This document shows positions 58,093 to 62,587 of a stretch of DNA of 64,000 nt, in pieces (positions within the stretch are counted from its first letter, which is position 1; every line of letters begins with the position of its first letter). Source of the DNA: Vicinamibacterales bacterium (GTDB taxonomy: Bacteria; Acidobacteriota; Vicinamibacteria; Vicinamibacterales; UBA2999); NCBI GenBank assembly GCA_030680175.1, contig JAUXWO010000111.1, forward strand, positions 65,145 through 129,144. The letters are read 5' to 3'. A program made the position numbers and the translations under genes. A model generated the notes under the pieces. The model was not told the origin of the DNA, ran no database searches, and worked only from the letters and a program-made list of their open reading frames with translations.

Positions 58093-59399
58093 GGCCCGAG
58101 ACGGCCGGGCGCCTCCTCGCCATCTCCTGGGAGATGCCGCCGCTCTCGGGCCCGCGCGCGGTCCAGGTCACGCGGACGCTCGTCGAACTCGGCCTCCGCG
58201 GCTGGCGCTCGCGCGTCGTCTGCTTCGGGCCGCGGTCGACGCGCTACCAGCAGGACTTCACGCTCGATGTCGAGGCCGTGTCCGAGGGCGTCGTGCGGCT
58301 CGTGCGCGTGGCCTCCCCCGAGGAGGCGTTCTTTTTCCGGGCGCTGTGGCGTCTGGTCCCGCCGGTCAAGCATCTGCCCGACGAGAAGCGCGTGTGGGTG
58401 CCGCGCGCGCTGGCCGCGGCGAGACGGCTCCTCGCCGAGGAACCCACGGACGTGATCGTCAGCTTCGCGCGGCCCTGGTCGGACCATCTCGTGGGGCTGC
58501 AGCTGCACCGCGAGACCGGGCTGCCCTGGGTGGCGCACTTCTCGGACCCGTGGGTGGACAACCCCTACGAGCGCGGCCCGGCCTGGCAGCGCCGCCGGTG
58601 TGCGGCGATGGAGCGAGCGGTCATCGAGGCGGCGACGCAGGTGGCGTTCGTCAACCGTCAGACGGCTGACCGCGTCATGGCGAAGTACCCGGACGCCTGG
58701 CGGTCGAGGGTCCACGTCGTGCCGCAGGGCTTCGAGCCCAGGCCGGCCGCGGTCTCGCGGGTCACAGGGCGTTCCGTGACCGAGGCCGCAGGGCTTGCCC
58801 TGAGCGAGCCCGAAGGGCGAGTCGAAGGGCTGCGCATCGTCTACACGGGGCGCTTCTACGATGGCATCCGCACGCCGGAGGCGTTCCTGCAGGCGCTGGC
58901 GGCGCTTCACCGCGAGGCCTCGCTCGACGGGAGGCTGACCGTCGAGTTCGTGGGCGCGGGCATGGACGGCTACGAGCGCCGCGCGCGCGAACTTGGAGTG
59001 GATGGGCTGGTGCGCTTCGCAGGCCGCATGCCGCCCGAGGCGGCGCAGCAAGCGGCCGCCGGCGCGGACGTGCTCCTCGTCATCGATGCCCCCAGTGACG
59101 GCCCCAGCCTCTTCCTGCCGAGCAAGCTCGTCGACTACCTGCCGCTGCGCGTCCCCATCCTCGGCATCACGCCGCCCGAGGGGCCGACGGCCGATCTGCT
59201 CGCGGCGCTTGGCTATCCCGTGGTGGCGCCGGACGATGTCGCGGGCATCGGGCGGGCACTCGCCCAGCTGCTCGACGCGCAGGCGGCAGGCACGCTCCGC
59301 GCGTCGGCGCAGCATGACGAGGTGTCTGCCGCCTACGACATCCGGGAGACGACCCGTGCGTTCGCGGAGGTCCTCGACACCGCGCGAGGCGCCCGGTGA
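58089..59399 (+). CDS. Glycosyltransferase, GT-B fold (GT4-like)
   Basis: Starts at GTG 58089 (GTGA overlap). Motifs RIVYTGRFYDG, VRFAGRMP and LPSKLVDYLPLRVPILG. Confidence 0.7.
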   Translation: MRPETAGRLLAISWEMPPLSGPRAVQVTRTLVELGLRGWRSRVVCFGPRSTRYQQDFTLDVEAVSEGVVRLVRVASPEEAFFFRALWRLVPPVKHLPDEKRVWVPRALAAARRLLAEEPTDVIVSFARPWSDHLVGLQLHRETGLPWVAHFSDPWVDNPYERGPAWQRRRCAAMERAVIEAATQVAFVNRQTADRVMAKYPDAWRSRVHVVPQGFEPRPAAVSRVTGRSVTEAAGLALSEPEGRVEGLRIVYTGRFYDGIRTPEAFLQALAALHREASLDGRLTVEFVGAGMDGYERRARELGVDGLVRFAGRMPPEAAQQAAAGADVLLVIDAPSDGPSLFLPSKLVDYLPLRVPILGITPPEGPTADLLAALGYPVVAPDDVAGIGRALAQLLDAQAAGTLRASAQHDEVSAAYDIRETTRAFAEVLDTARGAR

Positions 59400-60580
59400 C
59401 CACGCCGGCGGGCCGCGGCGGCGTGCTGATGGTGACGGGGGCGTACCTGCCTGAGCTGAGCGGCGGCGGCCTCCAGTGCCGGACGATGATCCATGCGCTC
59501 CGCGAGACGATGCGCTTCGAGGTGCTGACGACGTGCACGGACCCGGCGCTGCCCGGTCACGAGATCGTCGAGGGCATTCCGGTGACCCGCGTGTTCGTCG
59601 ACGTCCGGCGCTGGCGCACCAAGGTCGCGGCGCTCGTCCGTGTCACGCGCTTCTTCATCCGCCATCACGCGCGGTTCGCCGTCGTGCACCTGCACGGCTA
59701 CTCGCAGAAATCCGCCGCGATCATCCTGCTGGCCCGCCTCTTCGGGAAGAAAACCGTCCTGACGATTCACACGGCCGGGCATGATGAGGCGTCCGGTGCG
59801 CGCGCCATGGGGCGCGTGGCCTCCTGGGGCTACGGCCAGGTGGACCGCTACGTGGCCATCAGCACGCGGCTCGCGCGGAACTACCTGGAGGCGGGCCTGC
59901 CGCCCGAGCGCCTGCACGTGGCGCCCAACGGCCTCGACATCACGCGCTTTCGTCCGCCGGAGGCCGGCGAGTGTGAGGAAGCACTCCACGCCCTCGGTCT
60001 ACGAGACGACGTGCGATGGATCCTGTTCGTGGGGTTCTTCTCACGCGAGAAGGCGCCGGACGTGTTGTTTGAGGCGTGGCTGCGTCTGCGGGAGACGGAG
60101 TCGACGCCCACGGGCCTCCTGCTCGTCGGCGCCACGGAGGGCGTGTACCACGAGGTGGATGCGACACTGGCGCGCGACATTCAGGCACGGGCCGCGGCGC
60201 TGGGCCTGACGGATCTCGTGCGCATCACCGGCCCGCGGGCGGACATCGAGCGCGCCTACCACGCGGCGGACGTCCTCGCGATGCCCTCGACGCGCGAGGC
60301 CTTCGGGATGGTGCTGGTCGAGGCGATGGCCTCCGGCCTGCCCGTGGTTGCCACCCGGCTCGAGGGGGTCACCGACGAGATCGTGGAGGACGGCGTCACA
60401 GGGTGGCTGGTGCCGCCCCGCGATCCCGAGGCGTTGTCCGAGGTGCTGGCGCGTGTGTGCGCGGACTCGGCCGCGGCCCAGGCAATGGGCGCCCGCGGCC
60501 GAGAGGCCGTCGTCGCGAGGTACGGCCTCGAGGCCGCGCGCACCCGCTGGCTCTCCCTCTACCGGGGTCTGGCACCGTGA
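59396..60580 (+). CDS. GT4 (GT-B) glycosyltransferase
   Basis: GTG start within a GTGA overlap. Motifs LMVTGAYLPELSGGG, FVGFFSREKAPD and MPSTREAFGMVLVEAMASGLPVVATRLEGVTDEIVEDGVTGWLV (E-x7-E region). Confidence 0.9.
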   Translation: MTTPAGRGGVLMVTGAYLPELSGGGLQCRTMIHALRETMRFEVLTTCTDPALPGHEIVEGIPVTRVFVDVRRWRTKVAALVRVTRFFIRHHARFAVVHLHGYSQKSAAIILLARLFGKKTVLTIHTAGHDEASGARAMGRVASWGYGQVDRYVAISTRLARNYLEAGLPPERLHVAPNGLDITRFRPPEAGECEEALHALGLRDDVRWILFVGFFSREKAPDVLFEAWLRLRETESTPTGLLLVGATEGVYHEVDATLARDIQARAAALGLTDLVRITGPRADIERAYHAADVLAMPSTREAFGMVLVEAMASGLPVVATRLEGVTDEIVEDGVTGWLVPPRDPEALSEVLARVCADSAAAQAMGARGREAVVARYGLEAARTRWLSLYRGLAP

Positions 60581-60731
60581 CATCGAAAACGGCGCAGGAT
60601 CTGCCACATCACGGGGGCTGTGGGCTCGTGCCTGTGCATGGACGTGGCGGGTGCCGACCCTGGGATATCCACCCCCCCGCCCCCCCTGTGGCAGAATCTG
60701 CGCCTTTTTCGATGTCACGGTGCCAGACCCC
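60564..60731. repeat. 44-bp imperfect inverted repeat (41/44 matches) with an 80-nt spacer; candidate long RNA stem / terminator / MITE-like element
   Basis: The left arm (60564-60607) is ggggtctggcaccgtgacatcgaaaacggcgcaggatctgccac. The right arm (60688-60731) is gtggcagaatctgcgcctttttcgatgtcacggtgccagacccc. The mirrored peptide APFSMSRCQTP appears in ORF-track entries on both strands, which supports the repeat. The left arm covers the last 5 codons plus the stop of 59396..60580. The right arm ends 5 nt before ATG 60737. Confidence 0.9.
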
Positions 60732-60736
60732 ATAGA

Positions 60737-62587
60737 ATGACCGTAGTGCGCCGCCCCGACATCGTCTGTATCTCGTCCATCGACTGGGACTTCATCTGGC
60801 AGGGCCACCAGGAGATCATGTCCCGGCTCGCGGCCGAGGGGCATCGGGTCCTCTTCGTCGAGAACACGGGCGTCCGCCCGCCGCGCCTGAGCGACCTGCC
60901 GCGCCTGCGGCATCGCCTGACCAACTGGCGGCGCGGCACCAAGGGCTTCCGCGAGGAGCGGCCCAACCTGTTCGTCCAGTCCCCGCTCGTGCTGCCGCTG
61001 CCGTACTCGCGCGTGGCCCGTTGGGTGAACCGGATGGTGATGGTCCGCGGGCTGAACCGCTGGATGCGCGCCATCGGCTTCTCCCGCCCGATCGTCTGGA
61101 CGTTCCTGCCGACGCCGCTGGCGCGCGAGGTGATCGCGGCGCTCGACCCCGCGCTCACCGTCTACTACTGCATCGACGACCTGGCTTCGAGTTCGCCGGA
61201 GGCGCGCCGCATCGCCGCCAGCGAGCGACAGCTCTTCCGCGATGCCGACCTGGTGTTCGTGACGTCCGAGAAGCTGCGCGCGCGCGCGGCCGAGGACAGC
61301 GAGCGTGTGCACCTCTTCCCGTTCGGCGTGAACCTGGCGGCGTTCGAGCAGGTCCGCACCGAGGACGCCCCGATCCCGGAGGATCTGGCGGCGCTCCCGA
61401 GACCGGTGGCGGGGTATGTCGGCGGGCTCCACCAGTGGGTGGATCAGGATCTGCTCGCGGCTGTCGCCGAGCGCCTGCCGGACGTAAGCTTCGCCCTCGT
61501 CGGCCCGGCGCAGGTGGACGTGTCCCGCCTCGCACGCCTGCCGAACGTGCACCTGCTCGGCCAGCGTGCGCACGCGGAGGTGCCGCGTTATGTGAAGGGC
61601 TTCGATGTCGGCCTCGTGCCGTACCGCATCACCGAGTACACCGCCAACGTCTACCCGACGAAGCTGAACGAGTACCTGGTGATGGGCACGCCCGTGGTCG
61701 CGACCGATCTCGCGGAGATCCGGCGCTTCAACGCCGAGCACGGCGATGTTGTCTCGATCGGCACGACCCCCGACGAGTACGCCGCGGCCATTCGCCGCGC
61801 GATCGCCGGTGCACCGGCCGCGGAGGTCGCGCGCCGGATCGAGGTCGCCGAATCGAACAGCTGGGAGCGCCGCCTCGACGCGATGCGGACGCTGATCGAC
61901 GAGGCGCTGACCGTGCGCGAGGCCAGCCGGCCGGACTGGGAGGGACGGCTGCGCCGGCTCTACTCCGGGGCACGGCGGCGCACGGTCGAGGGTCTGGCCG
62001 CACTGCTGGTGGCGTACCTGCTCGTGTTCCACACGCCGCTCGTCTGGTGGCTCGCGTCGCCGCTCACCGTGACCGCCCCGCCTCAGCCCGCCGACGCGAT
62101 CGTCGTCTTCGCCGGGGGCGTGGGGGAGTCGGGGCGCGCCGGCGGAGGATTCCAGGAGCGCGTGACGCAGGCCGTCGAGCTCTACAAGGCGGGCTACGCC
62201 CCGCGCGTGGTCTTCTCGTCGGGCTTCGTCTTCACGATGCGCGAGGCCGAGGTGATGCGCGCGGTCGCCGAGGCCAACGGCGTCCCGCGTGACGCGATCG
62301 TGCTCGAGGAGCGCGCCGCCAACACGTACGAGAACGTCGCGTTCACCCAGGACATCCTCGAGGCGCGTGGCTGGCGCCGCATCCTGCTCGTGAGCTCCCC
62401 GTACCATATGCGCCGCGCGCTCCTCACGTGGCGTCACGTCGCGCCCGGGACCGAGGTGGTGCCGGCGCCGGTGCCCGAGAGCCAGTTCTACGCACGCGAC
62501 GGCTGGGGCATCTCCCTCGAGCAGATCCGCGGCCTGATCCACGAGTACGCCGCGATCCCGTACTACTGGTGGCGCGGCTGGCTGTAA
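60737..62587 (+). CDS. Fusion protein: GT-B glycosyltransferase + TM segment + YdcF/ElyC (DUF218) domain
   Basis: ORF 60620..62587 trimmed to MTVVRRPDIVCISSIDWDFIWQGHQ at 60737. GT-B C-terminal motif: NVYPTKLNEYLVMGTPVVAT. Hydrophobic segment: LAALLVAYLLVFHTPLVWWLA. DUF218 signature: ADAIVVFAGG...VVFSSG...ANTYENV...ILLVSSPYHMRRA. Confidence 0.8.
   Translation: MTVVRRPDIVCISSIDWDFIWQGHQEIMSRLAAEGHRVLFVENTGVRPPRLSDLPRLRHRLTNWRRGTKGFREERPNLFVQSPLVLPLPYSRVARWVNRMVMVRGLNRWMRAIGFSRPIVWTFLPTPLAREVIAALDPALTVYYCIDDLASSSPEARRIAASERQLFRDADLVFVTSEKLRARAAEDSERVHLFPFGVNLAAFEQVRTEDAPIPEDLAALPRPVAGYVGGLHQWVDQDLLAAVAERLPDVSFALVGPAQVDVSRLARLPNVHLLGQRAHAEVPRYVKGFDVGLVPYRITEYTANVYPTKLNEYLVMGTPVVATDLAEIRRFNAEHGDVVSIGTTPDEYAAAIRRAIAGAPAAEVARRIEVAESNSWERRLDAMRTLIDEALTVREASRPDWEGRLRRLYSGARRRTVEGLAALLVAYLLVFHTPLVWWLASPLTVTAPPQPADAIVVFAGGVGESGRAGGGFQERVTQAVELYKAGYAPRVVFSSGFVFTMREAEVMRAVAEANGVPRDAIVLEERAANTYENVAFTQDILEARGWRRILLVSSPYHMRRALLTWRHVAPGTEVVPAPVPESQFYARDGWGISLEQIRGLIHEYAAIPYYWWRGWL

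Follow-up and report, generated by a model that had tools for sequence, protein, structure and literature searches.

A palindromic element between two glycosyltransferase genes

The stretch of DNA analysed here, a 64-kb window from contig JAUXWO010000111.1 of a Vicinamibacterales bacterium, carries two consecutive glycosyltransferase (GT) genes that are separated by a 168-bp palindromic element at 60564–60731 (coordinates given without a contig name are positions in this window, and all features described at this locus lie on the + strand). The upstream gene (59396–60580) encodes a GT4 N-terminal domain followed by Glycos_transf_1, and its C-terminal tail was replaced through insertion of the element. 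Specifically, its current stop codon, the TGA at 60578–60580, occupies positions 15–17 of the element, which also encodes the last residues of the protein, GLAP. The downstream gene (60737–62587) encodes GT4 domains together with DUF218 and starts with the ATG at 60737, or with the GTG at 60746 when judged by alignment to relatives; no Shine–Dalgarno-like motif is visible before this start in either the window or the relatives. Between the element and this start lies a TAG (60733–60735), which is probably the ancestral stop of the upstream GT gene and is no longer used. A first-pass annotation of the window had noted the TGA that closes the open reading frame (ORF) 59396–60580 and the ATG 5 nt past the right arm of an inverted repeat, and had given 4-nt overlaps as the style of neighbouring junctions; both codons are borne out, and a 4-nt overlap is found at the upstream junction, 59396/59399.

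A repeat search delimits two arms of 45 nt each, which are 93% complementary and 78 nt apart, and thus confirms and slightly extends the inverted repeat described in that annotation (44 nt, 41/44 matching). The left arm (60564–60608) begins with 19 nt (60564–60582, GGGGTCTGGCACCGTGACA) that are the invariant terminus of a repeat family described below, and contains a mini-hairpin, GCAG-GAT-CTGC (60594–60604). The right arm (60687–60731) is the reverse complement of the left arm at 42/45 positions and ends with the invariant terminus TGTCACGGTGCCAGACCCC. The 78-nt central loop (60609–60686) is specific to this copy. It contains CTGTG-type family motifs at 60618–60624 and 60632–60638, and an additional CTGTGG (60686–60691) runs from its last base into the right arm; the palindrome (GGATATCC, 60663–60670) and the C7-G-C7 tract (60672–60686) that had been reported in the loop are both present.

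RNA folding of 60550–60745 predicts a stable hairpin of -125.9 kcal/mol, compared with -75.3 ± 4.4 for shuffled sequences (z = -11.6), an energy reached by 0 of 200 shuffles, and the inner stem by itself folds at -67 kcal/mol. The only Rfam match in 60300–61000, adenovirus VA RNA, scores 30.7 bits against a gathering threshold of 62 and was rejected as a spurious hairpin-to-hairpin match.

The element belongs to a dispersed family of hairpins

The whole element gives 128 BLAST matches across many contigs of the window's own assembly (4.98 Mb), the genome to which the following counts refer. With one arm alone as the query, 76 matches are obtained, which resolve into 31 inverted pairs of 71–225 nt and 14 termini that are unpaired or lie at contig ends. 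An exact-pattern census of GGGGTCTGGCACCGTGACA, for which 0.00 occurrences are expected in shuffled windows, counts 75 termini in this genome and five in the sole same-genus genome (G001), and each of the other 59 relatives has 0–2 near-matches with two mismatches. The family thus amounts to about 40 loci over more than 25 contigs. A scan of a metagenome contig collection for the same terminus returned only four single matches in metagenome-assembled genomes, of which two carry the label Acidobacteria/Acidobacteriota and one carries the label Rhizobacter; within that collection, therefore, the family is essentially confined to its own lineage.

The family consensus is essentially invariant at positions 1–19, and the base immediately outside is A in 64 of 73 termini. 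Inward of the terminus, a variable linker leads to the conserved mini-hairpin GCAG-NNN-CTGC; the centre beyond it is heterogeneous but usually carries a C-run and then CTGT(G/T)GA, a motif enriched about 170-fold over the genome; the C7...CTGTGG of the window copy is a version of this arrangement. Additionally, the inner GC-rich stem of the consensus is preceded by AAAA and followed by TTTT, and the smallest members, at 71 nt, form perfect hairpins of 34 bp. The consensus of the 73 termini has neither a GTAG nor a CGTC tag. No direct target-site duplication is found in the family: the flanks, mostly GA...TC, just prolong the inverted repeat, and TA...TA flanks occur once among the 31 pairs. 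An integron attC-type site was also considered for these palindromes and rejected, since they are scattered over more than 25 contigs, share 19 invariant nucleotides and are linked to a transposase gene of the Y1 type (see below) rather than to cassette arrays.

Family copies are also found at the ends of contigs, both at starts (C6:1–87, C22:1–69, C43:1–92, C49:1–62 and C102:7–34) and at far ends (C23 from 54670, C65 from 132130 and C101 from 59797). The hairpins thus appear to break short-read assembly, and the true copy number is probably somewhat above the count.

A Y1 transposase gene lies between two family termini

The same 19-nt perfect inverted termini enclose an intact ORF of 194 aa (C62:98312–98893) in an 807-bp segment, C62:98173–98979, and the two termini at C62:98173 and C62:98979 are otherwise unpaired. 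No coding sequence other than this Y1 gene was found in the space between two family termini. Its product matches Pfam Y1_Tnp at 2.8e-12, above the Pfam cut-off, and, with E = 0.004, the TnpA-REP structure of Escherichia coli (4ER8). Two motifs are kept across 12 homologues: the HuH motif, NHWH, and the tyrosine motif, RYVEAN(A/P) (here RYVEANA). In the clade of this protein, comprising the ORF itself and the homologues L114–L124, the middle residue of the HuH motif is W or F (H-W-H or H-F-H); the middle residues given for class 2 HuH motifs in PMC6006769 do not include tryptophan.

Genes resembling those of REP-associated tyrosine transposases (RAYTs; REP, repetitive extragenic palindrome) that are flanked by terminal inverted repeats (TIRs) with a GGGGWSAS head have been described as TIRtrons or TIRYTs (Di Nocera et al. 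2013, PMC3733652). They include a well-defined acidobacterial group, and their TIRs are sometimes amplified as dimers (PMC3733652). Most TIRYTs fall in TnpA-Y1 subclass 2.1, and most have a C-terminal helix-turn-helix (HTH) domain (Quentin et al. 2018, PMC6006769). In line with this organization, Y1 homologues of 40–49% identity are present in 23 of 61 related genomes, and most of the 11 homologue loci examined carry their own flanking inverted repeats headed GGGGTCTG, GGGGTCGG, GGGGTCAG or GGGGACAC, which share a GGGG(T/A)C-type head. Heads fitting GGGGWSAS exactly are found in several relatives (GGGGTCAG, GGGGACAC) and in a second Y1 paralogue of the same genome (GGGGTCAG). This paralogue, at C142:68542–69623, is 36% identical to the transposase on C62 and lies between perfect inverted repeats of 47 bp, each of which is a hairpin itself and which occur only twice in the genome. 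The genome thus holds an unamplified TIRtron, C142, alongside an amplified one.

Sequence comparison indicates that each family copy consists of a TIRtron's terminal repeat, present twice in inverted orientation, with C62:98173–98979 as the master. A 225-nt member, C62:102090–102314, lies 3 kb from the master, and its arms resemble the two different linker variants of the master and are not self-complementary. This suggests a direct derivative of the master that arose by internal deletion, and likely one in which the palindrome has not yet formed. The loop of the window copy shares only the short motif CCCCCTGTGG(AAA) with the master.

The element interrupted the tail of the upstream gene

For the history of the junction we compared metagenome relatives with the same gene pair, in which the upstream gene is 59–61% and the downstream gene about 70% identical to those of the window; the same-genus genome is unsuited as an empty-site control, since its GT homologue shares no more than 45% identity and a different gene follows it. 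In the relatives L033, L039 and L036 the two genes are adjacent and the element is absent. Their upstream product has the C-terminus ...IYA(E/Q)ALHS, its gene is closed by TAG, and 6–7 nt separate this stop from the start of the next gene. In the window, the unused TAG at 60733–60735 stands at a 13-nt spacing from CGCCGCCCCGAC, identical to that of the functional TAG in L033 and L039. The retained TAG and the element-free relatives together imply that the element interrupted the C-terminal tail just ahead of the old stop. We conclude from these alignments that the element is an insertion into the C-terminal tail of the upstream gene and that the TGA within it now serves as the stop.

Other relatives have different material at the same GT–GT junction: a spacer of about 290 nt (L034:2906–3200), one of about 430 nt (L018:2680–3100), and a stretch of about 1.5 kb that includes an ORF on the opposite strand (L038:697–2260). 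By this comparison the junction is a recurrent site of insertion or turnover.

Copies evolve as hairpins and are mobile

Where the arm sequence varies, identity is 85% between the two arms of one element and 59% between arms of different elements, and 24 arm haplotypes are found among 25 elements. A copy shared by two species provides a second view of this process. The element L126:3418–3537 (G001 contig C22) and the own-genome element C23:19357–19477 have the same flanks, the same stop at the in-element TGA and the same arm mismatches; with the copy present in both species, the insertion is older than their split. The two orthologues are distinguished by a compensatory double change, CTGCAGCCC/GGGCTGCAG versus CTGCCGCCC/GGGCGGCAG, and their central loops (CCCTGTTGA..GGCAACC) have opposite orientations relative to the flanks, which suggests either that the loop was inverted within its arms or that an element re-inserted at this site. 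The likeness of arms within elements and the compensatory change indicate that the elements evolve as hairpins.

One junction is filled in the sister genome G001 and empty here. A 124-nt element on contig C24 of G001 (L125:3685–3808) adjoins a dapF-like gene, and the orthologous junction of our genome (C143:677–692) is an element-free ATGA overlap of stop and start; the two genomes are too diverged for this pair to define breakpoints. At the filled site the upstream stop consists of TA and the first G of the element, and the sole in-frame start candidate downstream is a GTG within the right terminus of the element. The filled and empty sites indicate that the family is mobile.

Origin of the element

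Taken together, these findings suggest that the 168-bp element is very probably a non-autonomous copy of a TIRtron-derived, REPIN-like palindromic family that spread via a Y1/HUH transposase. The first-pass annotation had listed among its alternatives a 168-bp insertion resembling a miniature inverted-repeat transposable element (MITE) that supplied the stop codon, and had named a BLASTN count of copies as the way to recognise one. That alternative is supported by the many dispersed copies (75 termini at about 40 loci), by the Y1 gene bracketed by the same termini and by the retained TAG at 60733–60735. By analogy with the family, the transposase would recognise the folded ends on single-stranded DNA and copy or move the hairpin. 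The comparison with relatives places the insertion within the final codons of the upstream GT gene, immediately ahead of the ancestral TAG; translation now terminates at the TGA in the terminus of the element, which gives the protein the new tail GLAP.

Several points weigh against this reading. The transposase scores 67.3 bits with the NCBIfam model of REP-associated tyrosine transposases (NF047646), below the cut-off of 80. No C-terminal domain of the HTH type (Bac_DnaA_C, HTH_23, HTH_28) is detected in it, Y1_Tnp being the only match at E <= 0.01; its C-terminal approximately 50 residues are conserved across the homologues and match no listed domain, and with no HTH domain detected the TnpA-Y1 subclass is left open. 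The head of its own terminus, GGGGTCTG, fits the published GGGGWSAS at seven of eight positions. The window copy has none of the A/T flanking bases that are seen at 88% of family termini. Furthermore, plain removal of 60564–60731 leaves the old TAG out of frame, so that some bases of the tail must have been lost or changed at or after insertion; no exact target site or target-site duplication was found. Finally, all statements on expression effects rest on folding models.

Placement of the copies and predicted effects on expression

A gene reads into 42 of the 75 termini. In nine of these cases, namely the upstream GT gene and eight other genes, the gene stops at the in-element TGA; at eight termini a TA|G stop is completed by the first G of the element, and at five a stop codon directly abuts it. 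The window copy is thus typical of its family. Among the 27 complete internal copies, which define the following placement counts, 25 have a gene 3' end on at least one side. Eleven lie between convergent genes, eight at stop-to-start junctions, six have a gene end on one side only, and two lie between divergent genes. In the stop-to-start copies the downstream start lies 6–53 nt beyond the far terminus. Three of them have TAGAATG just past the far terminus (window 60732–60739, C1:48523–48547 and C98:87070–87099), which in the window, and apparently on C98, looks like an old stop followed by a start. The ATG of the C1 copy is out of frame, and the recurrence of TAGAATG may thus be partly due to chance.

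The element-free gene pair, with its stop and start a few bases apart and no Shine–Dalgarno motif, was probably translationally coupled ancestrally. Partition-function modelling gives 95% pairing for the 25 nt ahead of the ATG at 60737 in the presence of the stem; with 60558–60593 held open, mimicking a ribosome at the upstream stop, they become 41% unpaired. The 25 nt ahead of the downstream start would thus be locked in the stem, and ribosomes arriving at the upstream stop would melt its base. The likeliest consequence predicted by this model is that downstream translation is now strictly dependent on upstream translation; the long stem may also attenuate or process the transcript. The earlier proposal that the stem joins stop and start and that a terminating ribosome melts its base holds in the fold model, in both the masking and the opening, as a side effect; the same geometry would arise from whichever palindrome had inserted at a junction of this kind, and it does not speak for design.

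The same evidence bears on whether the hairpin was exapted as a coupling bridge, that is, kept at operon junctions to hold stop and start together and so maintain termination–reinitiation coupling across 156 nt. In its favour, coupling is probable in the ancestral arrangement, with stop and start 6–7 nt apart in the relatives and no Shine–Dalgarno motif, the modelled masking is relieved by a ribosome at the stop, eight of the 27 complete copies lie at stop-to-start junctions with a start 6–53 nt past the far terminus, and the sister-genome copy took the place of an ATGA overlap. However, the family is dispersed and its commonest setting is between convergent genes (11/27), where coupling is meaningless; the closest relatives of the gene pair are without the element; and the geometry arises from any palindrome at a junction. 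We therefore regard a coupling bridge as quite improbable. A dedicated long-distance coupling device, as favoured in the first-pass annotation, is not supported, given the dispersed copies, the very finding which that annotation had set against it, and the element-free relatives; the element is a selfish repeat of an ordinary kind rather than a regulator made for this junction. A broader proposal, to which we give little credence, holds that hairpin relics are tolerated or favoured at operon junctions since the stem re-juxtaposes stop and start and lets termination–reinitiation coupling outlast an insertion of 120–170 nt, and that the termini are shaped to donate codons. If it were true, the TGA at positions 15–17, the A(-1)G(+1) with which a TAG or TGA is completed, and GTG as a start would be such donated codons, and donation of a GTG start seems to occur at the dapF-like junction of the sister genome.

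Roles at 3' ends are reported for some REP and other palindromic repeats, and an element of this kind, acting as a (possibly bidirectional) terminator or attenuator or as a stabiliser of mRNA 3' ends, would fit the 25 of 27 complete copies that abut a gene 3' end, the 11 that lie between convergent genes, the stability of the inner stem alone (-67 kcal/mol) and the AAAA/TTTT around it in the consensus (GCGCC-TTTTT in the window copy). Yet scans for a compact GC-rich hairpin (loop 3–8) with a U-rich tract call no terminator in 60300–61000 or at the locus of a 71-nt member (L008), and the T tract has only four to five bases, which in the full stem pair with the A tract. Moreover, eight copies are within apparent operons and would have polar effects if they terminated transcription, and the 3'-end bias is equally explained by where insertions are tolerated. 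We consider a 3'-end role unlikely, and the intrinsic, bidirectional terminator suggested earlier is weak, the pattern scans being negative and the A4/T4 tracts belonging to the long stem. A promoter scan likewise found no site at the element or in the 71-nt member. As to the mode of spread, the long terminal inverted repeats, small size, many copies and heterogeneous interiors would also suit a classical DDE-type MITE that moves by cut-and-paste with target-site duplication, the flanking of the Y1 gene then being a coincidence. This is highly improbable: there is no direct target-site duplication, the outside base is A in 64/73 termini with complementary flanks (GA...TC), the Y1 gene is the sole coding sequence found between family termini, its homologues in most of the 11 loci carry GGGG-headed inverted repeats of their own, and the 225-nt copy 3 kb from the master bears the two arm variants of the master.

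With a TIRtron origin as the preferred reading, the family offers a clear example of a TIRtron whose ends have been amplified into about 40 hairpins in a little-studied acidobacterial lineage, a case backed by an empty site, an old insertion shared by two species and a likely deletion intermediate near the master. For annotation, it means that the stop and the last four residues of the upstream gene derive from a mobile repeat, and that eight other genes use an in-element stop too. The tie of the family to stop codons and stop-to-start junctions raises the question of how compact operons tolerate insertions and whether the hairpin preserves coupling.

Comparison with known systems

The C62 master resembles TIRtrons in having a RAYT-like Y1/HUH gene within terminal inverted repeats rather than GTAG-tagged REPs, a TIR head of the form GGGG(T/A)(C/G), and TIRs amplified elsewhere as single copies and inverted dimers. 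Distinct from them, its own head GGGGTCTG matches only 7/8 of GGGGWSAS, its protein is short (194 aa) with no C-terminal HTH or DnaA-like domain detected, and its dimers form long perfect hairpins that contain the conserved mini-hairpin GCAG-NNN-CTGC and, in the loop, the motif CTGTKGA. With the REPIN-RAYT systems (Bertels & Rainey 2011; E. coli REP/BIME and TnpA-REP) it shares a single-copy Y1 transposase within its repeats, a non-autonomous inverted doublet that folds as a hairpin and undergoes symmetric (compensatory) arm changes, and extragenic, 3'-end-biased copies that persist at orthologous sites. Unlike those systems, its repeats are without a GTAG or CGTC tag, its unit is a TIR of 19–45 nt versus a REP palindrome of 20–40 bp, and its transposase falls under the NCBIfam RAYT cut-off.

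The family also recalls the Correia elements of Neisseria, ERIC, RUP and the Rickettsia RPE, which are likewise palindromes, of about 100–170 bp, and are co-transcribed with their neighbours; as in hairpin MITEs of the Correia type, its copies can extend over the ends of genes and supply stop or possibly start codons, and they are predicted to form long RNA stems. Those elements, however, are unrelated in sequence and show TA target duplications and/or mobilisation of the DDE type, and their RNase III processing and promoter or terminator roles have been demonstrated by experiment. Finally, the stem would hide the downstream start until upstream ribosomes open it, as in the long-range pairing of phage MS2 through which replicase translation comes to depend on that of the coat gene, here as predicted by folding. 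In MS2-type coupling the pairing is locus-specific and conserved for regulation, whereas the stem described here is mobile and missing in close relatives.

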